Below are positions 207 through 52,292 of a stretch of DNA of 64,000 nucleotides, one piece after another. Each line of letters begins with the position of its first letter. The first letter of the stretch is position 1. The stretch spans positions 14,150 through 78,149 of the forward strand of contig CBDCGJ010000007.1 of the NCBI GenBank assembly GCA_965216645.1, given 5' to 3'. Source of the DNA: Alphaproteobacteria bacterium. GTDB taxonomy: Bacteria; Pseudomonadota; Alphaproteobacteria; GCA-2731375. The translations under genes and the position numbers were made by a program. The notes beneath the pieces were generated by a model. That model made no database searches. It saw nothing but the letters and a program-made list of their open reading frames with translations, and had not been told where the DNA came from.

Positions 207-249
207 TCAAGGAAGCCGCCACGGCTATAATGCCAAGGTGACGGCGATG

Positions 250-1913: not shown

Positions 1914-2114
1914 TTCTAGCTCCTTGTTCGACTCGAAGATTAGTAATTTCTTATAAAAATAGGCGAGAGACAACTCACGTTCGCGACAATGACGGCGCCG
2001 AAATGAGATGAAACACCAATTGAATTGGCCCGGGCATGGCCCTGTGGCAAAGTGCCCTATCCTTGCCGTGATTCTCTTGTAGTTTTCGAGTTCCGTTTGG
2101 AGAGACGCGTTCTG

Positions 2115-3470
2115 ATGACTAATTCTTCCTTGGCCGTCGTCATATTGGCTGCTGGCCGTAGCACCCGCATGAAATCCGACTTGCCGAAAGTCCTGCATCA
2201 CATTGCTGGACAACCTTTGCTCGACTATGTCCTTGGCGCGGCCGTTGAGTTGGCTGCCACCGATGTCACCCTGGTCGCCACGCCGCCCTACCGAGACGAA
2301 TTCGCGTCGCGCTACCCAAAAACTGCCGTTGCCGTACAGACCGACGCGCGTGGCACGGCCCATGCCGTGTTGGCGGCACGCGACCGGCTTATCGCGAATA
2401 AGGGGCCGGTGCTCATTCTCTACGGCGACAATCCGTTGATCCGCCCCGAAACGCTGAAAAGAATGCTTGCCGAAGTCGAGGCGGGGGCGGCGCTGTCGGT
2501 GGCTGGGTTTCGCCCGATGGATACGGCTGGTTACGGTCGTCTGCTGCTGGACGATGATGGCAATCTGTCGCGTATCGTCGAAGAGCGGGAGGCGAATGCG
2601 GAAGAGCAATCGGTTCGGCTTTGCAATGCCGGGTTCATGGCTGTGCGAGGCGACTTGCTGGTTCCGTTGTTAGACCGTGTCGACGACAATAACAGCAAAG
2701 GCGAGTTCTATCTTACCGATTTGGTCGCGTTGGCCTGCGGCGACGGGCATGTTTGCCGGGCCGTCGAATGCGCGGCGGAAGAAGCGATCGGCGTGGACTC
2801 CCGAACCGGCTTGGCCGCGGCGGAACAGGCAATGCAACAACGTCTGCGGCAGCGCGCGATGGACGCCGGCGTTACCCTGATAGACCCTGCGACAACCTGG
2901 TTCAGTCATGATACGGCATTAGATCGAGACGTCTTGGTCGAACCGTCCGTATTCTTCGGCCCAGGTGTCCGTGTCGGCCGACAGGCGACGATCAAAGCGT
3001 TTAGTCATCTCGAAGGGTGTAATATCGCAACTGGGGCCGTCATTGGTCCGTTTGCGCGGATACGACCGGGCAGCGACATCGCCGCCGATGTACGGATCGG
3101 CAATTTCGTCGAAGTCAAGAACGCGTCCGTCGAGGCGGGTGCGAAAGCAAATCATCTCAGCTATCTCGGCGATGCCCGGATTGGGGCAGGCGCCAATATC
3201 GGCGCCGGGACGATCACGTGTAACTACGATGGATATCTAAAATCTCACACCGATATCGGCGTCAACGCCTTCATCGGGTCGAACAGCGCGTTGGTCGCGC
3301 CTGTCAAGATCGGTGACGGTGCTCTCGTCGGCGCCGGCAGTACCATTGCTCACGATGTGGCGGCCGATTCCATTGTCGTCGAACGTGCCGCCGTCGAGGA
3401 GCGGCCCGGCATGGCGAAGCGGTATCGGGAACGCAAATTGAAACTGAAGGCGGAACGAGGAAACGATTGA
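2115..3470 (+). CDS. glmU: Bifunctional UDP-N-acetylglucosamine pyrophosphorylase / glucosamine-1-phosphate N-acetyltransferase
   Basis: N-terminal LAAGxGTRMKS nucleotidyltransferase motif, C-terminal hexapeptide LbH repeats, 451 aa. Start at ATG 2115 (MTNSSLAVVILAAGRSTRM), downstream of GGAGAG. Confidence 0.9.
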   Translation: MTNSSLAVVILAAGRSTRMKSDLPKVLHHIAGQPLLDYVLGAAVELAATDVTLVATPPYRDEFASRYPKTAVAVQTDARGTAHAVLAARDRLIANKGPVLILYGDNPLIRPETLKRMLAEVEAGAALSVAGFRPMDTAGYGRLLLDDDGNLSRIVEEREANAEEQSVRLCNAGFMAVRGDLLVPLLDRVDDNNSKGEFYLTDLVALACGDGHVCRAVECAAEEAIGVDSRTGLAAAEQAMQQRLRQRAMDAGVTLIDPATTWFSHDTALDRDVLVEPSVFFGPGVRVGRQATIKAFSHLEGCNIATGAVIGPFARIRPGSDIAADVRIGNFVEVKNASVEAGAKANHLSYLGDARIGAGANIGAGTITCNYDGYLKSHTDIGVNAFIGSNSALVAPVKIGDGALVGAGSTIAHDVAADSIVVERAAVEERPGMAKRYRERKLKLKAERGND

Positions 3471-5296: not shown

Positions 5297-5373
5297 CCTT
5301 ACCCATTGATGGCGCCGCTTTCGTGACTTATCTGTAGCTCCAGAATTCGGCGCGTCATTTCCGGGAGCTTTCC

Positions 5374-6753
5374 ATGAGCACATATGACTTTGACCTTTTT
5401 GTCATTGGCGGCGGGTCCGGCGGCGTGCGGGCCGGACGCATCGCGGCGAGCTACGGCGCGTCGGTTGGAATGGCGGAAGAGTATCGCTACGGCGGCACCT
5501 GCGTCATACGCGGCTGCGTACCGAAGAAGCTGTTCGTTTATGCCTCACACTTTTCGGAAGATTTCGAGGATGCGGCAGCCTACGGATGGACGGTCGGCGA
5601 AAGTCGGTTCGATTGGTCGACATTGGTGTCGAACAAGGACGCGGAAATCGATCGATTGAACGGCATCTATATCCGCATGTTGGAAGGGGCCGGCGTAAAA
5701 CTCTTTGACGGGCACGCCAAGCTGTTGGACCCGCACACGATTGAGATCGCCGGTGAGACCCGGGTGACCGCCGAACGAATTCTCATCGCCACCGGCGGTT
5801 ACGCCACGAAATTGGATATTCCAGGCGTGGAGTTTGGCATCACCTCGAACGAGGCCTTCCATCTCGACACGCTGCCGGAGCATGTCACGGTGATCGGCGG
5901 CGGTTATATCGCCGTCGAATTTGCGGGCATCTTCAACGGTCTCGGTCGCCAAGTTACCCAACTTTATCGCAGCGAACAGATATTGCGTGGTTTCGATGAC
6001 GATGTACGACATCACCTGGCGCAGGAAATCCGGAAGAAGGGGATCGATCTGCGCACCCATACCAATATCACCGAGATCGCGCGTTCGGCAGACGGATATG
6101 TCGCGACGCTGACCGACAGCAGCCGTTTGGAGACGGGTTTGGTCATGTTCGCGACGGGGCGTCGGCCGAATACGTTGGATCTCGGATTGGACGCCGCCGG
6201 CGTCGAATTGGATGAAAGCGGCGCGGTGAAGGTGGACAGCTGGTCCCAGACCAGTCAACCGCACATATTCGCGGTGGGGGACGTAACCGATCGATTCAAT
6301 CTTACGCCGGTCGCATTGATGGAAGGGCATGCCTTTGCCGACACGGTCTTTGGCGACAATCCGCGGCAGCCGGATCATCGGGATGTCCCGTCGGCCGTAT
6401 TCAGTCAGCCAAGCGTCGGCACGGTCGGACTGAGCGAAGCGGAAGCGTTGTCGGAAGGCTATGCGGTCGATCTCTACAAATCATCGTTCAAGCCGATGAA
6501 ACATACCTTAAGCGGCCGTGACGAGCAGAGCTTCATGAAACTGATCGTCGACCAGAAAACCGATCGAGTGCTCGGTTGCCATGTTGTCGGGCCAGACGCC
6601 GCGGAGATGGTACAGGGCATCGGTATCGCGTTGAAATGCAATGCCACCAAGAAACAGTTCGACGCGACCGTCGGCATCCATCCGACATCGGCGGAAGAAC
6701 TGGTCACGATGCGGACCAAATGGACCCCACCGGTGGCGGAAGCGGCAGAGTAA
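5374..6753 (+). CDS. gor: Glutathione-disulfide reductase
   Basis: FAD motif GGGSGG, redox-active [10 protein letters not shown] disulfide, C-terminal dimerisation domain with HPT motif, 459 aa. Confidence 0.85.
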
Positions 6754-6836
6754 GTCCGCTCCCGCAACGCCGTTTCCCTTGGCATATCTCTTGCGCGCGC
6801 GTATACAAAGCACCTTTTCGCCACGGGATAATGGCC

Positions 6837-8228
6837 ATGACGCAAACTTGGAGCCCCGATAGCTGGCGGTCGAAGCCGGCGCTGCAGCAACCTGACTATT
6901 CGGATCAGGGTAAGCTCGATGAGACCATCGATCGGTTGAGGAGCTATCCGCCCTTAGTCTTTGCGGGCGAGGCCAATGACATGAAACGGCAATTGGCTGA
7001 GGTTGCCGAGGGTCGGGCATTCCTGCTTCAGGGCGGCGATTGCGCCGAAAGCTTCGCCGAGTTCCATCCGGACAACATACGGGATACCTTTCGCGTCCTG
7101 ATGCAAATGGCTGTGGTCTTGACCTATGGCGCGTCGTTGCCGGTGGTCAAAGTCGGCAGGATGGCCGGACAGTTTTGCAAACCGCGCTCCAACCCGACGG
7201 AGACTCAGGACGGCGTCGAACTGCCGATCTATCGGGGCGACATGGTCAATGGCATCGAGTTCGACGCCGACGCTCGCATCCCGAATCCGGACCGTTTGCT
7301 GCAGGGCTATGCTCAATCCGCCGCGACGTTGAACCTGCTTCGCGCCTTCGCGCAGGGCGGATTTGCCGATTTGCACAAGGTCCAGGGCTGGACACTGGAT
7401 TTCATTGCCGATACCGATCAGGCCCAACGCTACGGCGAAATGGCGGAGAGAATCTCCGATGCGCTCGAATTTATGGAAGCCTGCGGGATCACCGGCGACA
7501 AGGTGCCGCAGGTTGGCCAAACTTCCTTCTATACAAGTCATGAAGGCTTACTGCTGCCTTATGAGGAGGCCATGACCCGCGTCGATACCATTACGCGGGC
7601 GGGCGGGCATTTCGATACTTCGGCCCATATGATTTGGATCGGCGATCGAACCCGCCAACCCGAAGGCGCTCATGTGGAATTCTGTAAAGGGATCAACAAT
7701 CCGCTCGGCATGAAAGTTGGACCGAGTATGGATCCCGATGAATTGATCGGCTTGATCGAAACCTTGAACCCCGACAACGAGCCCGGACGGCTGACACTGA
7801 TTGTCCGCATGGGGGCCGACAAGGTCCGAGACCTATTCCCGCCATTGTTGGAGCGGGTGCGTGACGGGGGGCATAGCGTCATTTGGTCCTGCGATCCGAT
7901 GCACGGCAATACCATCACTTCGTCCACCGGTTACAAGACCCGCCCATTCGAGCGGATTTTGGATGAGGTCAAGGGTTTCTTCGATGTGCATCAGGAATGC
8001 GGCACCTATGCCGGCGGCATCCATGTGGAAATGACAGGGCAACAGGTAACGGAATGCTTGGGTGGGGCGCAATTGATCGACGAAGCGCAATTGTCCTCTC
8101 GATATCACACCCATTGCGATCCCCGTTTGAACGCGTCCCAAAGTTTGGAACTGTCGTTTCTAGTTTCGGAGATGCTGCGGCGGCAACGTCGCGGCGCAAA
8201 CGCAACGCAAGCGTCCGCGACGGCCTGA
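6837..8228 (+). CDS. Class II 3-deoxy-7-phosphoheptulonate (DAHP) synthase
   Basis: About 464 aa with the N-terminal [23 protein letters not shown] pattern and the KPRS/SHEGLLL/GDRTR motifs of plant-type AroA(II). Start chosen at the second ATG (6837), 9 nt after GGGA. The upstream ORF extension overlaps gor. Confidence 0.8.
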
Positions 8229-8245
8229 GGTAAGGGGACTTAGCG

Positions 8246-9373
8246 ATGGATATCGAAACCGAAATTGCCGATTGGACCGACCACTATTTCAAGAAGACTA
8301 AGGCGGTGGTCAAGAAATTCGGCGAGAAACGGGTCACCTACGCGATCTTCATGCGGCGGCCGATCTGCTTCACGCCGAAAATCATGGTCGATTGGTTGAA
8401 CGAGGTTTCGGCCGAACGGGGCGTGGATTTTGATATCCAACTTTGCCATGAGGAGGGCGATTGGGTTGGTGCGGGCGACCCGCTCGTTTATCTGACCGGT
8501 CCGATGTCGGAACTGGTCGATCTCGAGACCTTGTATCTACAGAAACTCGGTGCCGCCTGCGTTGCCGGATACAACGCTTATCTGATGTGCCGCGATATGC
8601 CGAACGCCGCGTTCCTCGCGATGGACGCGCGCCATTGCACGGGCGCTGGCATGGCTGAGTTGATGGCCTATGCCGCCAGTGTCGGCAGTGAAGCCGCGGT
8701 GCGGGAGCACAATGTGGTGGGTTTCATCGGCAATGCCACCGACGCGACTGCCGGTTTCTTCGGTAAGGATGGCGGCATGGGAACCATGCCGCACGCATTG
8801 ATCGGATACGCCGGATCGACTTTGAAAGCGGCGCAAATCTTCCACGAAACCTTCCCGGGCGAGCCGATGACGGTACTTGTGGACTATTACGGTCTGGAAA
8901 TCACCGACGCTCTCGCGGTCTGCGATGCTTTTCCAGAGTTAGCGCGGGAGGGGAAATTGTCGGTGCGCCTCGACACGCACGGCGGCCGCTTCCTAGAAGG
9001 GTTGGACCCTCAAGAATCCTATGCGGTTCTGGAGCGCAACGTGCCGCGTGCGGTACGCCAATACCGGACGGAGGACGAGCTTCGTTGGTTGGTGGGAACC
9101 GGCGTCTCGGCCGCGGCTGTTTATTATATGCGCGAGAAGCTCGATGAAGCCGGCTACAACGCCGTCAAAATTGTCGCCAGTTCAGGCTTCGGACCGGCAA
9201 AATGCCGTGTTATGGGCAGCGTGCGTGCACCGATCGATGTCGTCGGCACCGGGTCTTATCTACCGGAAACCTGGCGCGAGACATATGCGACCGCCGATAT
9301 CGTTGCCTATGATGGCGTACCTTCCGTGAAAGTCGGTCGAGAGTTTCTGCTGCAGAAACTAAAAAAGGCATAA
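8246..9373 (+). CDS. Nicotinate phosphoribosyltransferase-family protein
   Basis: 375 aa with an N-terminal TDHYFKKT motif, the GTMPHALIG (GTxAH) motif and a VLVDYYG motif characteristic of the NAPRTase family. Confidence 0.6.
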   Translation: MDIETEIADWTDHYFKKTKAVVKKFGEKRVTYAIFMRRPICFTPKIMVDWLNEVSAERGVDFDIQLCHEEGDWVGAGDPLVYLTGPMSELVDLETLYLQKLGAACVAGYNAYLMCRDMPNAAFLAMDARHCTGAGMAELMAYAASVGSEAAVREHNVVGFIGNATDATAGFFGKDGGMGTMPHALIGYAGSTLKAAQIFHETFPGEPMTVLVDYYGLEITDALAVCDAFPELAREGKLSVRLDTHGGRFLEGLDPQESYAVLERNVPRAVRQYRTEDELRWLVGTGVSAAAVYYMREKLDEAGYNAVKIVASSGFGPAKCRVMGSVRAPIDVVGTGSYLPETWRETYATADIVAYDGVPSVKVGREFLLQKLKKA

Positions 9374-9390
9374 AGCGTCCTCGGCAAGAC

Positions 9391-10311
9391 ATGGTGGTGG
9401 ACAGGCAACGCTGGATCAGCCGTAGCGACGGCATAACCGGTATGGTCTGCATGATCGCCGGCACGTTCCTACTGACGACCCAGGATGCGATATCCAAATG
9501 GCTTGTGGCCGACTATTCGGTCGGGGCCGTCATGTGTTACCGCGGCATATTCTGTCTGCCCATAACTTTTCTGTTTCTTTGGTACAGCGGCGGGCGGCAA
9601 GTTCTGCGTGGCGGTCGAGCGGGGCCAATGGCGCTTCGGGGCGTTTTTGCATTGATAGCCAGCTATCTTGTCGTCCTGTCGTTTCGATATATGCCTTTGG
9701 CGGACGCCTTGGCGGTGTTGTTCGTCTCACCGATGCTGCTGACAGCGGCATCGCCATGGCTGTTGCGGGAGCCGGTTGGCTGGCGCCGCTGGCTCTGCGT
9801 TCTGGTCGGTTTCTCGGGTGTTGTCATTATGCTCCGACCGACGGGTGAGGGGGCCGGTTACTGGGCGTTAATCCCGCTTGCCGCAGCCTGCTTTTCGACT
9901 GCCAGGGATGGGATCACGCGTCTATACGGACAGGGCGATCCGGCAGCTACCATATTACTCTATACCGTCGTGATCGCGATTGCCGGCGGGGCCGCGACAT
10001 TGCCGTTCGCACCGGCTTGGCCGGCGCCCCGCGATTGGGTTCTATTTGCTGCCGGTGGAACACTTTGGGCTGGTGCCAATCTACTGCTGATCAAAGCCTT
10101 CCAAATTGCCGAGGCCGCCTCTGTCGCGCCGCTTAAGTACCTGGCTTTGGTCTGGGGCGTCGTTATCGGGTATATGTTCTGGTCCGATCTACCCGACATT
10201 TGGACGATCATCGGTGCCACATTGATCGTTGCCGCGGGTCTATATTTAATGCGGCGGGAAGCTAGAGCAGATTCACTTTACTCCGGTTCATATCCGCATG
10301 CGGTGAAGTAG
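9391..10311 (+). CDS. EamA/DMT-family transporter; C-terminus replaced by IS630 insertion
   Basis: 10-TM hydrophobic profile with duplicated EamA halves. The last 16 codons and the stop lie inside the left end of the IS630 element. The displaced original tail (ARLSRARRSGSGGVAPLR*) is readable after the IS at 11318..11370. Confidence 0.75.
   Translation: MVVDRQRWISRSDGITGMVCMIAGTFLLTTQDAISKWLVADYSVGAVMCYRGIFCLPITFLFLWYSGGRQVLRGGRAGPMALRGVFALIASYLVVLSFRYMPLADALAVLFVSPMLLTAASPWLLREPVGWRRWLCVLVGFSGVVIMLRPTGEGAGYWALIPLAAACFSTARDGITRLYGQGDPAATILLYTVVIAIAGGAATLPFAPAWPAPRDWVLFAAGGTLWAGANLLLIKAFQIAEAASVAPLKYLALVWGVVIGYMFWSDLPDIWTIIGATLIVAAGLYLMRREARADSLYSGSYPHAVK
10262..10273. repeat. IS630 left terminal inverted repeat
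   Basis: CTAGAGCAGATT is the exact reverse complement of 11307..11318. Confidence 0.85.
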
Positions 10312-10844
10312 TTTTTACACTCACTGGCTTTGAATTCGTCGATAGCTTGTCCAATCACCTTCCATAATTCTGGGATTGTCCGGGCTGCTTCTTTTCTCAG
10401 CGCCGCCTTGAGTTTCGAGAATGCCTTTTCGATAGGGTTGAAGTCCGGTGAATATGGCGGGAGGTAGAGCAAACGCGCACCGGCCTTTTCGATTGCCGTC
10501 CTGACGCCGGTGACTTTGTGGGCGGGCAGGTTGTCCATGATGACCACATCCCCCGGCTTGAGTTCCGGGGCAAGCACTTGTTCGGTGTAGGCGATAAAGG
10601 CGTCGCCGTTCATCGGCCCATCCAGCACCATGGGTGCGACCAAGCTGTCGAGACGCAACCCGGCGGTAAAAGTGGTTGTTTTCCAATGCCCGTGGGGAAT
10701 GGCGTCGCGGCAGCGTTCGCCCCGTTTGGACCGTCCGCGCCGCCGCGCCATCTTGGTGGAGGCGCCGGTTTCATCGACAAAGACAAGCTTTTCGGGATCA
10801 AGGTCGGGCTGAGCCTCAAACCAGAGTTCGCGCCGGGCTTTCAC
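10278..10844 (-). CDS. IS630-family transposase OrfB (DDE catalytic part), expressed as an OrfAB fusion by -1 frameshift
   Basis: DDE_3 motifs (LVFVDETG, DNLPAHK, SPDFNPIE). Reading -1 from the A7G run gives KKKTAHAAEQERADVKARRELWFEAQPDL, which matches the IS630 transposase linker consensus. Confidence 0.8.
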   Translation of the reverse strand: MKARRELWFEAQPDLDPEKLVFVDETGASTKMARRRGRSKRGERCRDAIPHGHWKTTTFTAGLRLDSLVAPMVLDGPMNGDAFIAYTEQVLAPELKPGDVVIMDNLPAHKVTGVRTAIEKAGARLLYLPPYSPDFNPIEKAFSKLKAALRKEAARTIPELWKVIGQAIDEFKASECKNYFTACGYEPE

Positions 10845-11224
10845 GTCCGCGCGTTCTTGTTCCGCTGCATGCGCTGTCTTTTTTTGAACGTGATACCGCG
10901 CTTCTTGAAAAAATTACAGACCGTTGCCGGACAGACCGAGACGTTGTGCTCCGCCTCAAGGCGCTCGGCGATCTCGTAGAGTGCGATGTCCGGCCGGTCC
11001 GCGACCAGGCCCAGAATATAGTCCTCATGACGATCAAGTTTGGAGCCGCCAGGTTGCCCCTGCTTGCGCGCCTCCGTTTCTCCGTAATCTCGATAGCGGC
11101 GATACCAGCGACCTGCCGTCGACACGCCAATATCGAAACGAGCCGCTGCTTTATGAGTTGAGAGACCACCCGAAATCGCGGAAAGTACCCGTTGGCGCAG
11201 GTCTGTGCTGTAACTTTGAGACAT
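10841..11224 (-). CDS. IS630-family transposase OrfA (HTH DNA-binding part)
   Basis: 127 aa with winged-helix/HTH features (MSQSYSTDLRQRVL..., ATVCNFFKKRGITFKKRQRM). Ends in an A7G slippery run. Confidence 0.8.
   Translation of the reverse strand: MSQSYSTDLRQRVLSAISGGLSTHKAAARFDIGVSTAGRWYRRYRDYGETEARKQGQPGGSKLDRHEDYILGLVADRPDIALYEIAERLEAEHNVSVCPATVCNFFKKRGITFKKRQRMQRNKNART
10858..10866 (-). other. A7G slippery heptamer (probable programmed -1 ribosomal frameshift or transcriptional slippage site) joining IS630 orfA and orfB
   Basis: Minus-strand sequence TTC AAA AAA AGA CAG. A shift of -1 in the A run produces the continuous transposase. Confidence 0.6.
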
Positions 11225-11306
11225 TGTTCCTCCTTGCGAATCAACGCAAAGATAGAATCATGGAACGGCTCAAACGGGAATCCCGTAAATGAATCTGTGT
11301 TCGATA

Positions 11307-11318
11307 AATCTGCTCTAG
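11307..11318. repeat. IS630 right terminal inverted repeat
   Basis: AATCTGCTCTAG is the reverse complement of 10262..10273. Confidence 0.85.
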
Positions 11319-20739: not shown

Positions 20740-21354
20740 ATGACGAAACGGCTAAGGTCGAAATACAAACTAAACCGCCGACTGGGCGAAAACCTTTGGG
20801 GGCGGCCGAAAAGCCCGGTCAATATCCGCGACTACGGGCCCGGTCAACATGGTCAACGCCGACGCAAGCCATCCGACTACGGTACGCAGCTGCTCGCCAA
20901 GCAGAAACTGCGTGGCTACTACGGCAACATCACGGAAAAGCAGTTCCGTCGGACTTATGATGACGCCGTGCGGCGTAAGGGCGACACGAGTGAGAACTTG
21001 ATTGGTCTCTTGGAAAGCCGACTGGACGCCGTGATTTATCGGGCGAAGTTCGTTCCGACCGTGTTCTCGGCGCGACAATTCGTCAACCATGGACATGTCA
21101 TGGTCAACGGTCGGCGGGTCAACATTCCAAGCTATCGGGTCAAGGAAGGCGATGTCATCGAGGTCCGGGAGCGCTCCCGCCAAATGAACCTGGTATTGGA
21201 AGCGGTCGATTCGCCGGAGCGGGATATTCCGGATTATCTCGACGTTGACCACAACAAGATGCGGGGTGTTTTTCTCCGCATGCCGAGTTTGGCCGACGTG
21301 CCTTACCCGGTCCAGATGGAACCGAACTTGGTGGTTGAGTATTATTCGCGTTGA
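20740..21354 (+). CDS. rpsD: 30S ribosomal protein S4
   Basis: 204 aa with full-length similarity to bacterial S4 ([24 protein letters not shown]..., S4 RNA-binding domain). Confidence 0.95.
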
Positions 21355-21388
21355 TACATCGAAAACTATCAAGTATTGCAATGGAATG

Positions 21389-21417
21389 AGGCCCGCATCG
21401 CGGGCCTTTTCTTTATT
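21389..21417 (+). terminator. Rho-independent terminator of rpsD
   Basis: GGCCCGC-atcg-GCGGGCC stem followed by TTTTCTTTATT, 35 nt after the rpsD stop. Confidence 0.8.
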
Positions 21418-21424
21418 CTCGTAT

Positions 21425-21437
21425 AGCGTTGGCGGTT
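21425..21437. repeat. Left arm of imperfect 13-bp inverted repeat in AT-rich region bordering low-GC islet
   Basis: AGCGTTGGCGGTT matches the reverse complement of 21517..21529 (AACCGCCAGCGTT) at 11 of 13 positions. The arms are about 80 bp apart. Confidence 0.4.
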
Positions 21438-21516
21438 TTAATATTCTAAGCAACTAATATTAGATAATTATTGCAACCTGTAATGTCTGTACCGAATCCC
21501 TCAGGTCCGGTAGTGT

Positions 21517-21529
21517 AACCGCCAGCGTT
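21517..21529. repeat. Right arm of imperfect 13-bp inverted repeat
   Basis: AACCGCCAGCGTT. See the left arm at 21425..21437. Confidence 0.4.
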
Positions 21530-21623
21530 TGAAAGAAATATATTCCGTATTGAAATAGTTTAATATCGAATCGTGTTTTGTAACTATATACGCGTACATC
21601 ATTAGCTGAGATAATTTTCACCC

Positions 21624-22415
21624 ATGTCAGTTCAGGATCAAACACAAGTTTTTGCACCCTGCCGTCGGGTCTTTCGGCGTGCCCGCAGGTTGCTGGACCG
21701 AGACGATCTAAACGATTCGCAACGGCTTCTCAGCGATTTCTCGACATGTTTGGAAAAAAGTTGTCCTCGCCGACAGCAATGTCAGCGATACGTCAGAGGC
21801 CAAGGACTTGCGGTTCCGGAGAACAAATCCGACCTCGTCGATTGGCAGACAATGTCTCGTCGTCCAAATGGTTATGTAGACATCGACGGCCACCGATTGA
21901 CGGAGGGTTTTGAACAACATTTTGCCGCCAGAGACCATTGGGAAAATAGGATTTTGCATCAACAAATAGCGAAAGATGTAGCGTGGAAGTACGAAACGTC
22001 GAGCTTTCGTGCGTTGCTCCGCGCTTGGTACGATTTGGAAAACCCCTCCCTTTCAGATTTCAACTTCGCTGCTCTGAACCGGGAGGATATTGAACCGTGG
22101 CTGCACATTTTTGAGTTTGGCGGCGAAGGGGGGACTAGATTCAAACGTTATGCGCCGCGTATGACGGAGCTGTCAGGCCGGGACGACACAAACACATCAA
22201 TCATGGATTTTCCTATCAGAAAGTTTGCTGAACTCATTGAGCAAGTTCAAGACGACCTTATCGAACAAAGAAAACCGAAATACGGTTATGTTGTTCGTCA
22301 ACTGAATTTCAAAGGCAGTCGACGTGAAGCAGCGATGCGGCGATTAGAATTGCCGTACTTTTCGGGCGATATGGTCGTCGGTTCAATCGTCATGTTGAAG
22401 CCAGAAGCGGCATAG
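21624..22415 (+). CDS. Hypothetical protein (low-GC islet ORF A)
   Basis: 263-aa ORF at about 48% GC inside a roughly 1.8-kb low-GC islet. No recognisable catalytic or DNA-binding motif. Preceded by a 200-bp AT-rich region. Confidence 0.45.
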   Translation: MSVQDQTQVFAPCRRVFRRARRLLDRDDLNDSQRLLSDFSTCLEKSCPRRQQCQRYVRGQGLAVPENKSDLVDWQTMSRRPNGYVDIDGHRLTEGFEQHFAARDHWENRILHQQIAKDVAWKYETSSFRALLRAWYDLENPSLSDFNFAALNREDIEPWLHIFEFGGEGGTRFKRYAPRMTELSGRDDTNTSIMDFPIRKFAELIEQVQDDLIEQRKPKYGYVVRQLNFKGSRREAAMRRLELPYFSGDMVVGSIVMLKPEAA

Positions 22416-23114
22416 CTCTTTTCGAAAATCCATCATTTGTTCATTTATTGAGCTACAGTTTAACCAGACATTTCGTTCGTCATTCGTGTAAGGGAAATAT
22501 CCGACGGAAATCGGAAAGCTATGTGAGTAGCCGTAATACTTAGTGCCAAATTCTCGTGAGATCAAAGCATCCGAGATTAATTGGCCTGTCAACCAGTCAG
22601 GTTGAAATCGTGTAATACCGTGTGCTCTGATCAACCGCGTGAAGTGGGCTGAAAGCCGTGCTCCTCCGTACTCCTGCTTGCGATGAGTTTTCTGTAAATA
22701 TGCTCCGCCAGAGTGAACAATAGATCCAGAAATATTCACCCGCTCGGGAGGAAACCGGAAATTAGGCAAAGGAACGGTTTCTCTATGATGTTTCGGGCTC
22801 CAAAGATACCCTTTCGCGATGTAATCCTTATAGTCGTCGATAATGTCGTGACGCATCGCGACCCAAGCTACGGGACTGCGATTTTGCTCAAGTAGTATCC
22901 AGCCGCTGTTACTTTCGGTGAGATCAAACAGCTCGGGGTCGAGATGACGTGCCAGCGGCGCTTCCGAATTGAATTCCAATGTCAGATCGCGCCAGCCCGA
23001 GAGGCCTGCAAAGCATTGAACGGATATCGCATTTCGATTTAACAACTGGCAGACTGTATCGATATACAGCTGAGTCAAAATATCGACATGATTGTCGTCA
23101 GACTGAAGTTGCAT
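22383..23114 (-). CDS. Hypothetical protein with GNAT-like acyl-CoA N-acyltransferase motif (low-GC islet ORF B)
   Basis: 243 aa. The segment IVHSGGAYLQKTHRKQEYGGARLSAHFTRLIRAHGI fits GNAT motif A (Q-x-x-G-x-A then a helix ending in G). It is in the size range of AHL/N-acyl-amino-acid synthase-like proteins. It is convergent with ORF A and overlaps it by 33 bp. Confidence 0.4.
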   Translation of the reverse strand: MQLQSDDNHVDILTQLYIDTVCQLLNRNAISVQCFAGLSGWRDLTLEFNSEAPLARHLDPELFDLTESNSGWILLEQNRSPVAWVAMRHDIIDDYKDYIAKGYLWSPKHHRETVPLPNFRFPPERVNISGSIVHSGGAYLQKTHRKQEYGGARLSAHFTRLIRAHGITRFQPDWLTGQLISDALISREFGTKYYGYSHSFPISVGYFPYTNDERNVWLNCSSINEQMMDFRKELCRFWLQHDD

Positions 23115-23191
23115 CTCGTACCAACGTGAATTAGCACGTGTGACTACACTTATATCAGTTAAGTTATCACGTAAATGCTATCTCTAGTCTA

Positions 23192-23539
23192 CTATTCTTC
23201 AAAAATCTCCAGCTTGAGGTCCAGCATTTCGCCCATCCAAATTGGATGGTCGCGATGGTCTTCAAGATCGTTACCCGTATTGGGATGCAGGAATATGGTG
23301 CAGCCGCGCCGGTTCAGCATCAACCACGGAACCAGCGTCGAAAACAGTTCCTGCGCAAATAGAATTTGGTAACTCCAACGCGGATGCGGGCCGACATTGC
23401 GTTCGTGCCAGCGGCCCATATCGACATCGAATTTCTCCACAACCTCCTCGCGCAAGGCCATCGCGGCCTCCCGCTTTTCGGCGTCGAAATAGACGTGGGC
23501 GTGGTAGTCCGGGATTCCGGCAACCATAGGTTTGGCCAT
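23192..23539 (-). CDS. DOPA 4,5-dioxygenase-family protein (DODA-like, PF08883-type)
   Basis: 115 aa with the [20 protein letters not shown]-terminus (conserved H-x-H-x-Y-F motif). Its start overlaps the grxD stop. Confidence 0.6.
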   Translation of the reverse strand: MAKPMVAGIPDYHAHVYFDAEKREAAMALREEVVEKFDVDMGRWHERNVGPHPRWSYQILFAQELFSTLVPWLMLNRRGCTIFLHPNTGNDLEDHRDHPIWMGEMLDLKLEIFEE

Positions 23540-44189: not shown

Positions 44190-47170
44190 TTAAGCTGCTT
44201 TAACGTTGGCCAAAAACTTCTCGACCACGGATTTCAGCGCTTCCGCCTGCTGCGAGACGTCACTGGCCGCGACCTGAACTTCCTGCGCCGCCGTGCCAGT
44301 ATCGTTTGCCGCGTCGTTGACGCTAATGATATTCGTCGACATCTGCTCGGTGCCAGCCGCCGCCTCCTGGACGTTGCGGCTGATCTCGGCCGTTGCCGAC
44401 CCTTGCTGCTCGACAGCCGCGGAAATCGACGTGACGATCCCATTGACTTGTTCGATCACACCGCTGATTTCCTGGATGGATTTGACTGTTCCGTCCGTTT
44501 CCTCTTGCATCGAGGCGATTTGATTGGTGATCTCCTCGGTCGCGTTCGCGGTTTGGGTGGCCAGGTTTTTCACCTCGGCCGCGACCACGGCGAAACCCTT
44601 GCCCGCTTCGCCGGCACGGGCCGCCTCGATCGTTGCGTTCAGCGCCAGCAGATTGGTTTGGCTGGCAATGTCGTTGATCAACTGCACGACGTCGCCAATG
44701 CGATGCGCGGCATCGCTGAGACTGGTGACGGAGAAATTGGTCACCTCGACTTTTTTCAACCGCATTGTTGGTGATGTTGATCGACTCGTTGGCCTGCTGA
44801 TTGATCTCGGAGATCGAACTGGACAATTGCTCTGTCGCCGCCGCCACCATCTGTACGTTGGAACTGGCTTCCTTGGACGCGGACGCGGCGGCAGTGGCTT
44901 GGCCGGTCGCACTGTCGGCTGTGGAAGCCATCGATTTGGCGGTCGAATCAAGTTCCGTGGCCGCGCTGGGACACCGTGTGGAGAATGTCGCCGACCTGCG
45001 CATCGAACTCGTCGGTGATCCGTTCTATATGCTGGGCACGCTTCTCGCGTTCGGGCCCGTTGCGCTTCCTCGACCGCCATCATTTCCTCGTTGCGGATCA
45101 TGTTTTGTTTGAAGACGTCGACCGCGTCCGCCATGTCGCCAATCTCATCTTGACGATCCTGGCCGGGGATCTCGACCTCTTTGTTTCCGCCCGCCAACTC
45201 GGACATCGCGGCGGTCATCTCGGTCACCGGGCGACTGATCGAGCGGGCCATGAGATATCCGGCCATGGCAATCGCGGCAATGCCGGACGAGGGCCATGAT
45301 CGCCATGATCCATTTCATCCGAACGACCGATTCGAAGGCTTCGGCCTCGTCGATTTCAGCCATCAGCGCCCAGGTGATCTTGTCGGAAACCTTCAATGGG
45401 GCATAGGCGGAGAGGACCGGATTGCCATTATAGTCAATCACGATTTCCGAACCGGTTTCGCCAGCCAATGCCTTATTCGCGGCATCGGTATCGGACGCGT
45501 CCGGTATCCGGATTGGCGAACGAGTTTTTGACGCTGTGCCCTTCGGGATCAAGGAAGGAGTCTGACCGCATAAGTTTGTCCTGACCGACCAGATAGGTTT
45601 CTCCGGTTCGGCCCATGCCTTCGCGCTGTTGCATGACGCTGTTAATGGCGTCCAGCGACAGTTGCAGTGCGACGACGACGGCTACTTTTTCCGTCAATCA
45701 TCACCGGCTGGGCAATAAACGCCGCCGGTTCGTCTGCGCTTGGCGCGTAGGGTTCGAAGTCTGAGACCCCATAGGCACCGGAACTCAACACTTCGCGAAC
45801 CAATTTTCCAAGACCCGAGTCTTTGAATTTGCCGTCGACGATATTGGTCTGGTAATCGGCCTCCTTAGCCACCGTATAGAAGATATGGCCGTCCGGGTTC
45901 ATCAGAAACAGGTCGTAATAGCCGTAAAGATCGACATAGTTCGAGAAATAGGACTTGCCGTCTTCACTGGCGGGAACGAAAGCCTCCGCCACGTCGATCT
46001 CTGCAATCAGCGCCCATGTATGTCCGCCGACATCCACCGGCGTATAGGACGACAGGACGGGGTTGCCGTTATAGTCCGTAATGATCTTGGTATCGGCCTT
46101 GCCGGCAAGGGCGTTGCGGGTTGCCTCGGTGTTGATCGTACCCTTCGCCGGATTACGGAAAGAGGCCACGACCGAATAGTTTTTCGGATCCAGATAAGAG
46201 TCCGACCGCATTAGATTGTCGGGGCCGACCAAATAGGTTTCGCCGGTCTTGCCAAGGCCCGCGCGCTCCGACATCACCTCTGTGATCTTGTCCAAGGGCA
46301 TCTGGAAAATCAGCACCCCGACGATCTCGCCGCCATCGAAGATCGGCGATGAAATGAAACTCGCCGGCGCATCGTAGGATGGCGTGTAGAGCGCATAGTC
46401 GATCAGAGCGTAGTCGGTTGTCTTCTCCAATTTCAGGCCCGCGCGGAACGCCTCGCCGATGCCGCTCTCTGCCCAAGCGCCCGTTTAGCAGCGACGTTCC
46501 ATAGTCGAGCTCCTTGAAGACCGAATAGATGATGTGACCGGTCTTCGCGTCGGCGATGAAAATGTCGTAATAGGAAAAACGCTCCAAATAGTCACGGACC
46601 GGGGGGTGGATTTGCGCGTGCACGGTGCTGTACAGGGTGCCCGTCGCTCGCCTCGTCCAATTGATGTTTGTTGCCCAGCGGATGCTTGTTGGCGCGTATA
46701 TACTCGTATTGCAGCGCGATCGCCGTGCTGTCCATCTTGGCGAAAATCTCGTCCACGGACGGACCTTCGCTGCCGTTTTGGTTCTGATATTCCGGCAGAT
46801 ATTCGTTGTCATAGTAGGTCCGCAGCCGCCGTTTCATGCTTTCGAGTTGCTCGGGGCTGAGCGCGCGTTCGTCGACATAATTGTGGAAGTGCGACCGGAA
46901 ACGCCGTGTCGCGTCGACGATCATACGATTTTGCGAAAGCGTGATGACCTGAGAACGGATGGTTTCGAAATAGCTTTCGACGGCGGATTTCTTGATCTGC
47001 CGGACTGCGGACAGCTTGGCGCGGCCTTCCCGTTCCAACACGCTGACCGTCTCGGCGAGGACTTTCATGTCGTTATGGCGGTCGTCGAGGAATTTCTCGA
47101 TTTGCGCTTTTTTGACGGCTCGAATGCCCTCCAATTGATTAAAGGCACGCGTTTCGAGGGTGCCTGACAT
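44190..47170 (-). pseudogene. Methyl-accepting chemotaxis protein with three tandem Cache-like sensor units, TM, HAMP and MCP signalling domain; broken by at least 7 frameshifts
   Basis: Seven consecutive overlapping minus-strand ORF fragments (46592..47170, 46153..46812, 45642..46430, 45473..45697, 45145..45552, 44190..45266, 44323..45003) together encode the Cache units (TGETYLVG(P/Q)D(N/K)LMRSDS(Y/F)LDP; (I/V)(T/I)DYNGNPVLS(S/A)Y(T/A)P...WAL(I/M)AEID(V/E)AEAF), a TM segment, a HAMP domain and a canonical signalling domain ([41 protein letters not shown]). The reading frame changes at each junction. Confidence 0.75.
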
Positions 47171-47374
47171 ATTGACGAGATTTGCAATACCCCGACACGG
47201 CGAAGGGTAGAATTCCTATGACGAGGAACGCCGAGATCAGTTTCGGGCCAATTTTGATATTTGCAAAATTTTTGATCGACATAATTTCACTCCACAGTAC
47301 CGGCGGCCTATCCGAATACTGTCATCGACAGAAGATGTGCCGCGCTCTGTCGAGATATCTATATTATGAAAACC

Positions 47375-48029
47375 TTAAATAGACGCTAACGCCGCTTCTC
47401 GCCCGGCCGCATTGACCCAATCCGGTTGGCCGAGATGCGCGACCCGCAAGCTTTTTCCGCGTAAGGCAACTTCGCGAAATTGATACATAATCGCCGCCGT
47501 TGGGGCATGGATGCGGGTATCACCGAAAAGCATTCGGATAATCGGCGGGCGATCCGGGCCTTTGGCCACGAATTGGGGAGAATCGGGTCGGGACAGTTCC
47601 GTAAAGTCGATTTGATGGATTGAGGCGACTTCGTCTGGGTTGGCTTTCATTGCCGAAATATCGTCGAGCCAAAGCACGAGGGGAGTGATCAAATATCCGG
47701 TACTGGTCACGAAGTCGTCCAACCTGCCAAGGATTGCTTGTTCCGGTGCGGACAGGTTTATCTCTTCCTCAAGTTCTCGACGTGCGGCGTCGATATCGAT
47801 CTCACCCGAATCCAGACGTCCACCCGGGAAAGCCCACTGTCCGGCATGGTTCCGGAGCCGGGAAGTGCGGCGGGTCAATATTAGAGTGCATTGTCCTGCT
47901 TTATTGGCGGCAATGCCGACGGCGACCGCCGAATGCTTCAATTCTTCGGCCGTCGTAACGGCGACGCTGAAATCGGGAGAGATTTTCGCTGATCATCGCG
48001 CGCAGGTCGTAAGCGTGGCGAAACGTCAT
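47375..48029 (-). CDS. NUDIX hydrolase, CoA pyrophosphatase (NudL-like); apparent frameshift near N-terminus
   Basis: NUDIX box AFPGGRLDSGEIDIDAARRELEEEINL. The N-terminal piece from ATG 48029 (MTFRHAYDLRAMISENLSRFQ, matching the E. coli NudL LSRFQ region) is out of frame with the body, which starts at ...VAVTTAEELKHSAVAVGIAA. Confidence 0.65.
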
Positions 48030-48419
48030 GTCAGATTCGATCCTGATACTTTATCCGGCGAAATGACCCAGTTTGTCGGATCTTGGACGATGGACGATTA
48101 CTGCATGGTACCGAGCTCGCTGGAAAAATCCATGGCCGGACGTCGGACGCGCGTTCCACAGTCTCTTGTTGGCCATCGGTTTCTGCAATCTTTCGGCGCC
48201 GGCGCCTTCCATTTCCGTGTTTCATATCTAGAACAGCGTTTTACTCTATCAGGGCTACAACACCCTTTATTTGGCGGATTGGCGAGCCATACCTTTGCGC
48301 CGCCCGGTACAGCGAGCGCGCTTACGGTTGCCCAGCGTATCCTCATGTCAGCGCCTTGTCCTCGACCGCCCACAGCTGCCGTCTTTTAGGCGGGCCGGTG
48401 GGCGGTACGAAGCCAAGGA

Positions 48420-49274
48420 TTAGGCCGCGTCGGCTTGTTCGGCTTGATGGATCACCGTTTGCGGGAATGGGATGGTCAGATCGGCGGCGTCAAACGCTTC
48501 CTTCAGCGTTTTTGTCATGTCGAATTTCAGGGCCCAATAATCGGTTCTGTCGCACCATACTCGAATGACAAGGTTGACGGAGCTATCGGCGAGCTCAGAT
48601 ACCGCGATCAAATGGGCTGGCTCATCATGGCAACGCTCGTCAGCCTTGATGACCTTTTCAGTTACCCTCGATCGCCTTATTGATATCGTCGTCGTAGGAA
48701 ATGCTCATGGCCATATCTAGACGGCGCGTGTCGTGGTAGCTGAAATTTTTCACCCGCCGCACCCCCAGATATGGCTGTTCGGCGCGATGATATGCACATT
48801 GTCGGCTGTGGTTAGTTCCGTTGTGAATAGGTTGAGCGTCTTCACCGTACCTGAAACGCCGGCGGTTTCAACGAAATCGCCGATATTAAACGGTCGGAAC
48901 AACAGGAGCATGACACCGGCGGCAACATTGCTTAACGTGCCTTGCATGGCAAGGCCGATTGCAAGACCCATGGTGCCGAGAACAGCGATAAGGCTGGCTG
49001 TCTGGACGCCAAATTGACCGAGAACGGTGATGACCGTAACTGCCAGAACCAAGTAACGGGCGGCGCTTGCCGCCAAAGTCCGGACCATATCGTCGACGCG
49101 GTCGCCGCGGCTCAGAATCCTCAAGACCGTCGACTTCACCCAGCGCGCGGCAATCCATCCGACAATCAGGATAGCCAGGGCGCCAACAACCTTAATGCCG
49201 TACTCAACGAATATCGAAAGAGCCAGTTGGGTCATTTCAACAACGGAAGCTTTGTCCATGTTATCTCTCCACAT
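48420..49274 (-). CDS. Small-conductance mechanosensitive channel (MscS family); two compensating single-base indels
   Basis: The TM/pore region and the C-terminal vestibule (ELADSSVNLVIRVW) are in one frame. A roughly 32-codon segment (VKNFSYHDTRRLDMAMSISYDDDINKAIE) lies in another frame, between a G5 run (should be G6) at about 48760 and a GGG run (should be GG) at about 48665. Confidence 0.7.
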
Positions 49275-49363
49275 CGATAATTGTTCGGCTTAAATCAAGA
49301 CAAGAAAAAGGGGTGCCGGTAGAGCACCCGGCACCCCAATTTTTCGCGTGTTATGCGTACCGA

Positions 49364-50225
49364 CTATTTCACAGGCGATACGACAATCTCAACACGCCGG
49401 TTCTTCGGATGGCGAACGCCGTCCTCGGTCGGTACTGCCGGCTCGGTTTCGCCGAGTGCGACCGCACGGACCGTATTGGCTTTCGCGCCGATGTCCAGCA
49501 TCTTGAGGATCACGCTTTCGTTGCGTCGTTCCGACAGACCCAGGTTGTAATCGGCTGAACCGGACAAGTCGGTGTGACCGCGCAGGCGGATCTGCGAGTC
49601 AACGGAGTTGGCGAACTGAACCGCTTTCGAGATGATGGTCTCGGCTTGCTGCGTCAAATCGGCCTTGTCGAAGTCGAAGTAGACAATGAACTGCTGATCG
49701 TCCGGCTTCGGCGGAACCGGCTTCATCACCTTTTCTTCAGGCTTCAGCGCGGCTTCGACACGCTCCATCGCAGCGAGGAAGTTGGCGCGGCAGCGGGCGA
49801 TGTCTTCCGGTTGATGATTTTCTTCCTGCTCTTCATCCAGCAATCCATCATCGCCTGGGCGTGCGCCATGTCTTTGGGCGCGGCCTCCGCGCCGCCACGG
49901 CTCAAGGCGTCGAGCAGGCGGGCATGGGCGGCCTTGATCTCGTCGACGCTATCCCGCGGCAAGTCGAAATCGGCCGGGTTGTACGGTTGCGGCGCGCTGC
50001 ACTTCGGCGGCTTGAGCGGCCCCGGCGGGCATAATCATCCGCCGCGCCGTAATGCGCTTCCGCATATTCGCTTTGAGCCAGGTCAATATACTCCGCATAG
50101 AGTGCTTGGTAAAATCGCTACCCGTCGGTGTTAGACCCTGTGACCCTATCGAGTTCAGAACCTGCGCATGCAGTTAATACAAGCGCAACGAGGCCGGTAA
50201 AGGCGGCCTTTACTGTTGTGTTCAT
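49364..50225 (-). CDS. OmpA-family lipoprotein (OmpA/MotB peptidoglycan-binding C-domain); in-frame TAG plus 3 frameshifts
   Basis: Lipoprotein signal MNTTVKAAFTGLVALVLTAC. Then an in-frame amber stop (SNTDG*RFYQALYAEYIDLAQSEYAEAHYGAADDYAR). Frame changes follow at a GGGG run, a CCC run and ATGAAGAG before the intact OmpA_C domain (DSQIRLRGHTDLSGSADYNLGLSERRNESV). Confidence 0.65.
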
Positions 50226-50401
50226 TGCTAACGTCCCTGATCCAGTCAGTAAAATATTTCGTCCATGCCGCCAATCGGGGGCACTTCATATGGATATGCG
50301 GATTCGCCAAAAATATCAACGAATAGTTTGTTAATTTAGGTACCATATTGGCAAACGTGTCCGTCATGTAACGGTCCGCGAACTGCCCGAAAAAACTCGT
50401 C

Positions 50402-52292
50402 TTAGGCGGATTTTTCCGCTTCGAGTGATTCCATTAAAGCGAGCCATTCTTTTTCCAATCGATCAAGTTTTGTGACGCCAATCCTTGCTGCCGGCTTAGT
50501 TCGGCGGCATCGACTTCGCCGCTGCGGTAGGACTTGGGATCGGCCATCAGCGCTTCCAACTGCCCGTAAATGAGTTTCAGTCAGGGATATTTCGCATTCT
50601 ATAGCTGGATAGTTGGCGACGCAAGGGGGCCAAATTGGCCCTTTTCGCTGCCGCATTCTTCTTCTTTACCTGAACGGGTATCGTCGGTTTTTGGTGCGGC
50701 GTTGCTGCCCGGCGGGGGCGAAACAGGCGATTTTGGTAGTCGGACACGTCACCGTCGAATACGTTCACGGTTCCACCAGCCACTAGCCAAAGCCGATCGG
50801 CGACCAATTCCACAAAATGCCGATCGTGGCTGATTAGGATTACACTGCCGCTGAACTGGTTCAGAGCCTGAATCAATGCTTCGCGCGCGTCCACGTCGAG
50901 ATGATTCGTCGGTTCGTCCAAAATCAAGAGTTGCGGCTTGGCTTCGGTAATCAGAGCCAAAACCAGGCGGGATTTCTCTCCACCCGAGAGGTTTTCGGCC
51001 GCCGTCGTGGCACGATCTTGGATCAAGCCATAGCCGCCCAGGTGACTACGCAATTCGGTTTCCGACGCGTCGGGGCGAAGGCGGCGAAGGTGATCGATCG
51101 CGGTATCCTGTGGACGCAGGTCCTCGATTTGATGCTGGGCGAAAAACGCCGCGCTCAGGCGATGATTGCGGTGCAAATGACCGGCCATCGGTTCCAGTCG
51201 GCCGGCCAGCAGTTTGGCGAATGTCGATTTACCATTACCGTTTTGACCCAACAAGGCGATCCGATCATCGTTGCCGATGGTGAAGTTCAGGTCTTTCAGC
51301 ACCGGCTCGCCGGGCCGATATCCGACCTGGACCCCTTCCGCCGAGACTAGGGGCGGTGCCAATTGCTTGCCGTCCGGAATGGCGAAGCTGACCGATGGGT
51401 CGACAAGCGCGGCGGCGATGGGTTCCATTCGGGCCAGCGCCTTCAGACGGCTTTGCGCCTGTCGGGCTTTTGACGCTTTGTAGCGGAACCGGTCGACAAA
51501 TTGCTGGATATGCTTGCGCTGCGCTTCTTGCCGCGCCCGCGCCTTTTCCTGAAGGACAGCGCGCTCACGCCGTTGCCGGTCGAACTGATCGTAGCCACCG
51601 CGATAGAGCGTGAAAGCGGTCGGCTCGATGTGCAGAATATGGTCGACCGCGCGATTCAACAGTTCCCGATCATGGCTGACCAGCAGGACGGTATGCCGAT
51701 AGCTGCGGAGGAAACCTTCGAGCCACATGGCGCCTTCGATATCGAGATAGTTGGTCGGTTCGTCCAGTAGAAGAAGGTCCGGCGCCAGGAAAAGCGCGGC
51801 GGCCAAAGCGACGCGCATCCGCCAGCCGCCGGAATATTCTTCGCAAGGTCTTCGTTGCGCGGCTTCGTCGAAACCGAGCCCGGCCAGGATTGTCGCCGCG
51901 CGGGAAGGCGCGCCATATGCGTCGATGTCGACCAGCCGTTCGTGGATTTCCGCCATCCTTCCGGCCTCGGGATCGGTATCGAGCTCTGCCAATAGATTAT
52001 GGCGTTCGGTGTCGGCGGCTAGGACAGTATCGACGATGCTTTCCGGCCCGCCTGGCGCTTCCTGAGCGACAGCACCGACGCGGAGGTTTCTCGGCATGCT
52101 GATCTCGCCGTCATCGGCCTGGAGTTCGTCCAGGATCAATCGAAGGAGCGTCGACTTGCCGACACCGTTGCGGCCGACCATGCCGACATGATGACCGGCC
52201 GGAATTTGAACCGAGCAGTTCGTGATCAGATCGCGCCCGCCAATGCGGTATGTCAGGTTTCTGATGTCGAGCATGGCCGGCTTGTTTAGCAC
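50402..52292 (-). CDS. ABC-F family ATPase (tandem ABC domains, no TMD; Uup/EttA-like translation/resistance factor family); last ~80 codons carry three frameshifts
   Basis: Two complete Walker A ([18 protein letters not shown]), signature ([16 protein letters not shown]) and Walker B sets in the 50577..52292 frame. The C-terminal coiled-coil tail is spread over three frames (…NLAPLRRQ / …[35 protein letters not shown] / …[22 protein letters not shown]). Confidence 0.8.

Follow-up and report, generated by a model that had tools for sequence, protein, structure and literature searches.

Most residual errors in long-read assemblies concern homopolymer length; they break genes apart and survive where polishing has failed (PMC8812927, Polypolish; PMC12007338, Kastor; PMC8574707, ARAMIS). 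In polished PacBio assemblies of GC-rich bacteria, they are mostly deletions of G or C (PMC8574707). Natural bacterial pseudogenes, for their part, have been found to carry 300 insertions and 396 deletions, a ratio of ~0.76; about one-third of the deletions are 1 nt long, mean sizes are several nucleotides, multi-base indels are many, and substitutions and stop codons accompany them (PMC6054270). A deletional bias has also been described for such genes (PMC2817411). The window analysed here (the whole stretch of DNA under study, 64,000 nt) contains five consecutive genes that share features with both systems. As in decaying pseudogenes, consecutive genes are frameshifted and their fragments are annotated as short separate proteins. 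As with homopolymer consensus errors, the indels are single-base and lie at homopolymers, they come without accompanying substitutions, and the genes are split into adjacent open reading frames (ORFs) from which a full-length homologue can be pieced together. Typical homopolymer errors are spread along a contig, whereas these form one ~6-kb patch in an otherwise clean 64-kb window; they are also biased toward insertions, with even one base read as two, in contrast to the mainly G/C deletions that ARAMIS reports for GC-rich bacteria. Unlike pseudogenes, the tract favors insertions by 6 to 1, contains 1-nt events only and no stops, and leaves conserved residues intact.

Frameshift-aware alignment to intact homologues located 21 single-base frame changes, every one on the minus strand, between positions 44,754 and 50,606 and with a mean spacing of ~293 nt. 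Eighteen are one-base insertions and three are one-base deletions, distributed over genes for a methyl-accepting chemotaxis protein (MCP; nine events), a NUDIX hydrolase (one), an MscS-type mechanosensitive channel (three), an OmpA-family lipoprotein (five) and an ABC-F ATPase (three). The calls agree across three-frame reading, single-homologue alignment and profile-based frameshift-aware alignment, and these approaches confirm five consecutive broken genes with intact flanks, as the preliminary description had reported; its count of 17 frameshifts rises to 21. A +1/−1 model was best for all 21 events. Two cases that had appeared to be +2 or −1 resolved into two +1 events, after which the length matches that of homologues. 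At every site, a run of two to six identical bases inside the ambiguity interval explains the change, in agreement with the earlier impression of mostly single-base changes in homopolymers; at sites 50,002 and 50,141, a non-homopolymer insertion fits as well as a run miscount. That all 21 events fall within 5,852 nt of the window (approximate P ~3.5e-20) is clustering far beyond chance.

The MCP gene (44,190–47,282, minus strand) encodes a tandem-Cache chemoreceptor, with dCache_1 matches in the sensor region followed by HAMP and MCPsignal, a complete Pfam architecture. Homologue and profile alignment found nine +1 events rather than the seven frame changes first described, with the same result for each of five separate homologues and for the profile. 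Read along the minus strand, the deposited sequence has GGGG where GGG is expected at ~47,192 (47,186–47,198; TCG[g]GGT), GGG for GG at ~46,642 (46,636–46,648), AAA for AA at ~46,485 (46,479–46,491), AAAAA for AAAA at ~45,689 (45,683–45,695), CC for C at ~45,493 (45,487–45,499) and ~45,285 (45,279–45,291), CCC for CC at ~45,053 (45,047–45,059) and ~44,968 (44,962–44,974), and AAAAAA for AAAAA at ~44,754 (44,748–44,760), where the corrected reading is NNAVEKVEV. Once the nine surplus bases are removed, the protein is 1027 aa long and spans ~100% of many intact ~1027-aa homologues at 57–60% identity. Collapse of near-identical Cache repeats had been suggested as a cause of misassembly. We rejected it on finding neither near-identical nor tandem repeats; the strongest repeat within the sequence reaches 81% identity over 43 nt.

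The NUDIX hydrolase gene (47,375–48,029, minus strand), assigned by its Pfam NUDIX match and homologue alignments, encodes 217 aa after correction. Alignment upheld the one frame change proposed for it, a +1 at ~47,950 (~47,945–47,960, minus strand) that splits the first ~24 codons from the body; in homologues, ~35 residues precede the part that corresponds to the 188-aa ORF. Six-frame reading of the adjoining spacer (48,030–48,420) revealed nothing recognizable. Beyond it lies the MscS-type channel gene (48,420–49,259, minus strand; 278 aa corrected, with four of four MS_channel Pfam domains), in which a profile of 40 homologues placed +1 events at 48,764 (G5 from G4), 48,754 (GGG from GG) and 48,666 (GGG from GG), all on the minus strand. 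The last of these is the GGG-for-GG change already noticed near 48,665. Its supposed partner, a deletion in which G5 should be G6, was replaced by the other two insertions, which yield IWGAAVKNFS, equal in length to IWGSAVKNFS in homologues.

Five events, all on the minus strand, interrupt the OmpA-family lipoprotein gene (49,364–50,225, minus strand): +1 at 50,141, −1 at 50,109, +1 at 50,021 (GGGG from GGG), +1 at 50,002 and −1 at 49,835 (ATGAAGAG from ATGGAAGAG). The corrected protein has 286 aa and no stop, matches Pfam OmpA over positions 1–98 of 98, and is 67.5% identical to P0121 across 286 aa. An in-frame TAG (~50,120) had been counted as a nonsense codon in this gene. It falls in the out-of-frame stretch between the +1/−1 pair at 50,141 and 50,109, which bypasses it, and the alternative frame over it reads QGLTPTGSDFT against QGLQPQGSAFT in homologues.

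The ABC-F ATPase gene (50,402–52,292, minus strand) is clean over its first ~1,670 nt. Its final ~200 nt contain the three shifts that had been noted near its end, here aligned as +1 at 50,606, +1 at 50,563 and −1 (or +2; the alignments fit either reading) at ~50,486, all on the minus strand, and its ABC_tran_CTD Pfam domain was recovered only after correction. One end of the tract lies within ABC-F, at no gene or operon limit: three events in the final 200 nt and none in the first 1,668 nt have P = 0.003 at the tract rate. On the other side of the tract, 2.9 kb are free of events (P = 4e-5).

We then looked for signs of decay in the corrected proteins, all five of which reach full length and have complete Pfam architectures. 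The ~1,880 reconstructed codons of the tract contain no in-frame stop; if substitutions outnumbered indels 10:1, ~6.8 nonsense codons would be expected (P(0) = 0.001). In columns built from 97–119 homologues, mismatches at positions at least 97% conserved numbered 1 of 104 in MCP, 0 of 27 in OmpA, 2 of 72 in MscS and 0 of 14 in NUDIX, or 3 of 217 in total. This retention falls inside the range of functional homologues, and the conserved-column comparison showed no excess change at conserved residues. The identity of the tract genes to their orthologues in the closest relative is in line with that of the flanking genes. Counting against an artefact, MscS departs from the consensus at 7 of 98 columns that are 90% conserved, a little more than is usual among homologues, of which 7% reach this level.

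In that closest relative (L081, a 4.9-Mb contig labelled 28x), the ABC-F, OmpA, MscS and NUDIX genes are syntenic and intact, so the comparison with orthologous loci suggested in the preliminary description finds an unbroken block for these four genes. Each family likewise supplies more than 100 homologues that are single ORFs. Errors with the tract's signature also occur in a second public sequence, a related metagenome contig (L082; ENA ERZ25070786, ctg116418l), where they hit an unrelated set of genes. It carries eight one-base insertions, one one-base deletion and no stops, in purM (four), purN, ndk, a CDP-alcohol phosphatidyltransferase gene and ABC-F, mostly adjoining short G/C runs, and its OmpA and MscS genes are intact. 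The spectrum is the same as in the tract. Homopolymer consensus errors stay behind locally where coverage or polishing has failed. Searching genome contigs with ABC-F returned no close relative (best identity, 62%), and the collections searched contained no conspecific sequence.

An artefact of consensus or assembly is the most likely origin of the tract, a reading that we consider highly probable. The pattern points to something ordinary, a poorly supported assembly patch and not real gene decay, and the organism itself almost certainly carries all five genes unbroken. Such a patch would consist of low-accuracy consensus inside an otherwise accurate draft contig, in which the lengths of short runs were miscounted 21 times over ~6 kb, mostly by one base too many. 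Perhaps only one or a handful of error-prone reads backed the stretch, or polishing missed it; ~6 kb would be about the length of one long read or of a gap-bridging segment. The preliminary description had also preferred a localized artefact over pseudogenisation, and the indel spectrum, the lack of decay signs, the boundary internal to ABC-F and the second contig all support it in this. Its suggestion that the return to frame reflects selection does not stand, because three +1 events restore the frame arithmetically. The strong insertion bias does not fit every platform and counts against an artefact; set against the G/C-deletion tendency of polished PacBio assemblies (PMC8574707), it leads us to name no technology. 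At 90% identity, none of the window proteins tested clusters with any other protein, and all come from one 90,549-nt contig; we therefore infer, rather than observe, the technical cause and the platform or assembly step behind it.

True pseudogenes, inactivated and decaying through real single-base indels, are an unlikely alternative source of this pattern, although the frame changes do stand in the deposited sequence, public gene calls on the same contig give fragments as the separate proteins P0125, P0352 and P0361, and the five genes share one strand, none of them obviously essential except ABC-F. The pseudogene spectrum is deletion-rich and multi-nucleotide (PMC6054270), whereas insertions make up 18 of the 21 events here (P = 7e-5 at an insertion fraction of 0.43) and every event is a single base. 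Nonsense codons and an excess of changes at conserved residues are both lacking in the tract genes, the tract limit lies inside ABC-F and not at a gene or operon edge, and no further gene is affected in the remaining 58 kb. The second contig shows the same signature in purM, purN and ndk, in which real inactivation is implausible. Very unlikely, in turn, is that the 21 changes are real and reflect homopolymer insertions that arose in a very recent burst on one stretch, for example in one extraordinarily error-prone repair pass; the chemoreceptor, NUDIX, MscS, OmpA lipoprotein and ABC-F tail would then have been knocked out before substitutions accumulated. Were the indels real, a localized +1 burst would be a remarkable mutational event, and the evidence is strongly against it.

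Very unlikely too is the proposal that a natural process acting on one stretch of DNA, such as a single extremely error-prone episode of repair or break-induced synthesis, or the recombinational import of a copy already damaged, produced real indels. Boundaries that are physical and not gene-based, and a single mutational type across events, would be in keeping with it. One-pass error-prone synthesis, however, is known to yield indels only at densities orders of magnitude below the ~3.6 per kb found here (21 in 5.9 kb). Moreover, the window shows no duplicate or donor copy, the locus is syntenic and orthologous, and cells with a truncated ABC-F and four further broken genes would need to have predominated in the sample. 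Extremely improbable is that the genes are functional as written through programmed ribosomal frameshifting, transcriptional slippage or phase-variable switches. Frameshifted endosymbiont genes are reportedly rescued by transcriptional slippage at long poly(A), in work attributed to Tamas and colleagues (Science, 2008), and our genes resemble them in having frameshifts at homopolymers, every event lying at a run of identical bases, with protein sequence otherwise conserved. Slippage rescue needs A-tracts of approximately nine or more bases and AT-rich reduced genomes, whereas the runs here are 2–6 nt long, mostly G/C, in a genome of ~58% GC, and long poly(A) or simple-repeat tracts are absent. 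Nine successive recoding events within one gene would have no known precedent, and stop codons occur within the out-of-frame stretches. Judged by sequence comparison, recoding appears effectively refuted because no site is conserved in orthologues, the genes being single ORFs in the closest relative and across each family.

The biological importance is small and the value practical. The public record of an otherwise unique lineage holds five broken genes whose fragments are already in protein databases, and these would be wrongly tallied as pseudogenes or lost genes, for instance in chemotaxis and envelope functions beside the cbb3 oxidase cluster. Full-length corrected sequences can stand in for the fragments. 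Several checks distinguish artefact from decay without reads: how insertions compare in number with deletions, how long the indels are, whether stops are absent and conserved residues retained, whether a boundary falls inside a gene, and whether housekeeping genes of a sister contig bear the signature too.

In the remaining 58 kb of the window, we found no frameshifted genes. End-to-end NCBIfam model matches were obtained for ccoN, ccoO, ccoP, ccoG, ccoI, ccoS, ndk, purN and purM, and the orthologues in the closest relative align to the window flanks in one alignment and one frame each. A codon-usage Viterbi scan, noisy across a low-GC island at 21–23 kb, flagged same-strand frame switches outside the tract that we rejected as small genes (including bolA, grx, purS and DUF1476) and an IS630-type two-ORF transposase. 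Rfam matches over the window comprised a tRNA-Val only. The five broken genes adjoin the cbb3 oxidase cluster.

We examined the region between 44,190 and ~52,290, which comprises five consecutive genes, all on the minus strand, in a window of ~58% GC from an alphaproteobacterium. The cbb3 oxidase cluster ccoNOQP-GHIS lies upstream of these genes, with ndk, purN and purM on the opposite side. In three-frame translation, recognisable protein sequence jumps from frame to frame. We collected homologues of each gene (120 for the chemoreceptor, 120 for the OmpA-like protein, 120 for MscS, 150 for the NUDIX hydrolase, and sequences from related loci for ABC-F) and located the frame changes with a dynamic-programming aligner that permits frame shifts between a homologue protein and the DNA, using single homologues first and later profiles built from several.

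Across the five genes, this frameshift-aware alignment identified 21 events, comprising 18 insertions and three deletions. The chemoreceptor gene (MCP, 47282-44190, minus strand) carries nine extra single bases, at 47192, 46642, 46485, 45689, 45493, 45285, 45053, 44968 and 44754, all of which were recovered with five different homologues. The NUDIX gene (48029-47375, minus strand) has one extra base at about 47950, and mscS (49259-48420, minus strand) has three, at 48764, 48754 and 48666. The gene for the OmpA-family lipoprotein (50225-49364, minus strand) has extra bases at 50141, 50021 and 50002 and missing bases at 50109 and 49835, and the ABC-F gene (52292-50402, minus strand) has extra bases at 50606 and 50563 and one base missing (or two extra) at about 50486. 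Each event falls at a short homopolymer that could account for it, including G4 from G3, G3 from G2, A5 from A4, A6 from A5, C3 from C2 and CC from C. We found no in-frame stop codon in the five reconstructed genes.

These alignments and our checks of the flanks confirm the preliminary description of five consecutive frame-broken genes between intact neighbors, although its details needed correction. It had counted 17 frameshifts rather than 21, and its in-frame TAG in the OmpA-like gene disappeared once the closest homologues were used; the true frame between 50141 and 50109 reads QGLTPTGSDFT, where homologues have QGLQPQGSAFT. Two extra Gs in mscS, which yield IWGAAVKNFS and a length equal to that of the family, fit better than the missing G it had proposed.

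The 21 events are confined to 5,852 nt, with a mean spacing of 293 nt, and the chance of such clustering in the 64-kb window is ~3.5e-20. One boundary of this tract lies within the ABC-F gene, whose last 200 nt contain three events and whose first 1,668 nt contain none (P = 0.003 given the event rate of the tract). Beyond the opposite end, no events occur in 2.9 kb comprising ccoI, ccoS and the 3′ part of the MCP gene (P = 4e-5). Long ORFs cover the window outside the tract, and flanking genes align over their whole length with NCBIfam equivalog models and, in one frame each, with the orthologues on L081, a 4.9-Mb contig of the closest relative. A codon-usage scan flagged suspect frame switches beyond the tract, and genuine small genes or an IS630-type transposase explained every one of them. 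The limits of the tract are physical, not functional.

Correcting the frame changes restores full-length proteins for all five genes, of 1027 (MCP), 217 (NUDIX), 278 (MscS), 286 (OmpA-like) and about 623-629 (ABC-F) residues. The corrected MCP has 1027 residues, aligns over ~100% of many intact ~1027-aa homologues at 57-60% identity and contains complete Pfam dCache_1, HAMP and MCPsignal domains. The OmpA-like lipoprotein covers the OmpA domain in full (1-98 of 98), MscS contains all four MS_channel domains, the NUDIX hydrolase contains its NUDIX domain, and ABC-F contains two ABC_tran domains, the Xtn linker and the C-terminal domain. In columns with 97% conservation or more across ~100 homologues per family, we counted mismatches at 1 of 104 positions in MCP, 0 of 27 in OmpA, 2 of 72 in MscS and 0 of 14 in NUDIX, a level not above that of typical functional homologues. 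Identity of the tract proteins to their syntenic L081 orthologues is likewise comparable with that of the intact flanking genes. Judging from these reconstructions, the genes beneath the frame changes are healthy.

The chemoreceptor (44190-47282, minus strand) belongs to a conserved MCP family of ~1025 residues with a long periplasmic sensor of two Cache-like modules; the family occurs chiefly in metagenome genomes of marine alphaproteobacteria or Rhodospirillaceae.

The signature of the tract argues strongly that it arose as a sequencing or assembly artefact, and we do not regard it as a biological feature. That the five genes are real pseudogenes is improbable. In a curated study of bacterial pseudogenes, 300 insertions were found against 396 deletions, with about one-third of deletions being 1 nt and mean sizes being several nucleotides (PMC6054270). 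Under that spectrum, at least 18 insertions among 21 events has P = 7e-5, and 21 single-base events of 21 would be rarer still. Moreover, ~3.2% of random substitutions in the tract codons would create a stop, so that at ten substitutions per indel 6.8 nonsense codons would be expected, and finding none has P = 0.001. Decay would also need to end abruptly in the middle of the ABC-F gene. A natural mutation burst confined to the tract seems very unlikely to us, and recoding of the frame changes is scarcely conceivable.

Residual errors in long-read assemblies, by comparison, are mostly changes in homopolymer length, which split genes and persist where polishing does not succeed (PMC8812927, PMC12007338, PMC8574707), although the insertion bias of the tract is unlike what one study reports for GC-rich bacteria in PacBio assemblies after polishing (PMC8574707). 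The artefact reading was already preferred in the preliminary description and gains support from the indel spectrum, the lack of stops, the retained conserved residues, the boundary within ABC-F and a matching signature in a second relative, L082; the collapse of near-identical repeats that it had offered as a cause finds none in the window that could collapse. Our best guess is that the tract, at ~6 kb, would correspond to one long read or gap-bridging segment.

The OmpA and MscS searches retrieved both related loci. The L081 record name (ctg17171_28x_l) suggests 28x coverage, and its gene order is the same (DUF2066 gene, purM, purN, ndk, ABC-F, OmpA, MscS, NUDIX). All of these genes are intact. 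L082, a 13-kb metagenome contig (ENA ERZ25070786, ctg116418l), has at least nine single-base frameshifts in positions 1-11312 (eight insertions and one deletion) and no stops. They mostly adjoin short G/C runs and affect purM (four times), purN, ndk, a CDP-alcohol phosphatidyltransferase gene and ABC-F, leaving OmpA and MscS intact; gene calls are truncated as a result (NDK 99 aa, ABC-F 529 aa). Genuine inactivation of ndk and of genes for purine synthesis is not credible, and a technical signature of this kind therefore exists in comparable public data. Its type and its bias are those of the window tract.

The window comes from one contig of 90,549 nt, present in NCBI and ENA. In a collection of 15 billion proteins, every window protein that we checked (ribosomal protein S4, Ndk and PurL among them) clusters with no other sequence at 90% identity, and the best relatives are ~55-70% identical for most proteins (91% for Ndk). 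This is a lineage without a sequenced close relative; synteny with L081 is nonetheless kept from the DUF2066 gene through NUDIX. Fragments of the OmpA-like (P0125, 159 aa), MscS (P0352, 169 aa) and NUDIX (P0361, 167 aa) proteins are already catalogued as independent proteins, and the assembly error has therefore spread into protein databases.

A spacer of ~390 nt (48030-48420) separates the stop of mscS from the start of the NUDIX gene; the same gap is 4 nt in L081 and 55 nt in L082. Six-frame reading of this spacer revealed no recognisable gene, and a small one is possibly masked because the spacer falls within the error tract. The sole further split gene seen in the window is an IS630-family transposase (10278-11224, minus strand) of two overlapping ORFs, one of 127 aa with an HTH domain (10841-11224, minus strand) and one of 188 aa with a DDE domain (10278-10844, minus strand), which may represent a natural arrangement (two-ORF or with programmed frameshifting) or a copy that has been inactivated. 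A low-GC island at ~21000-23200 (GC 0.48 versus ~0.58) contains two convergent ORFs without obvious identity, of 263 aa (21624-22415, plus strand) and 243 aa (22383-23114, minus strand), both scored as non-coding by the codon-usage model; the island may have been horizontally acquired.
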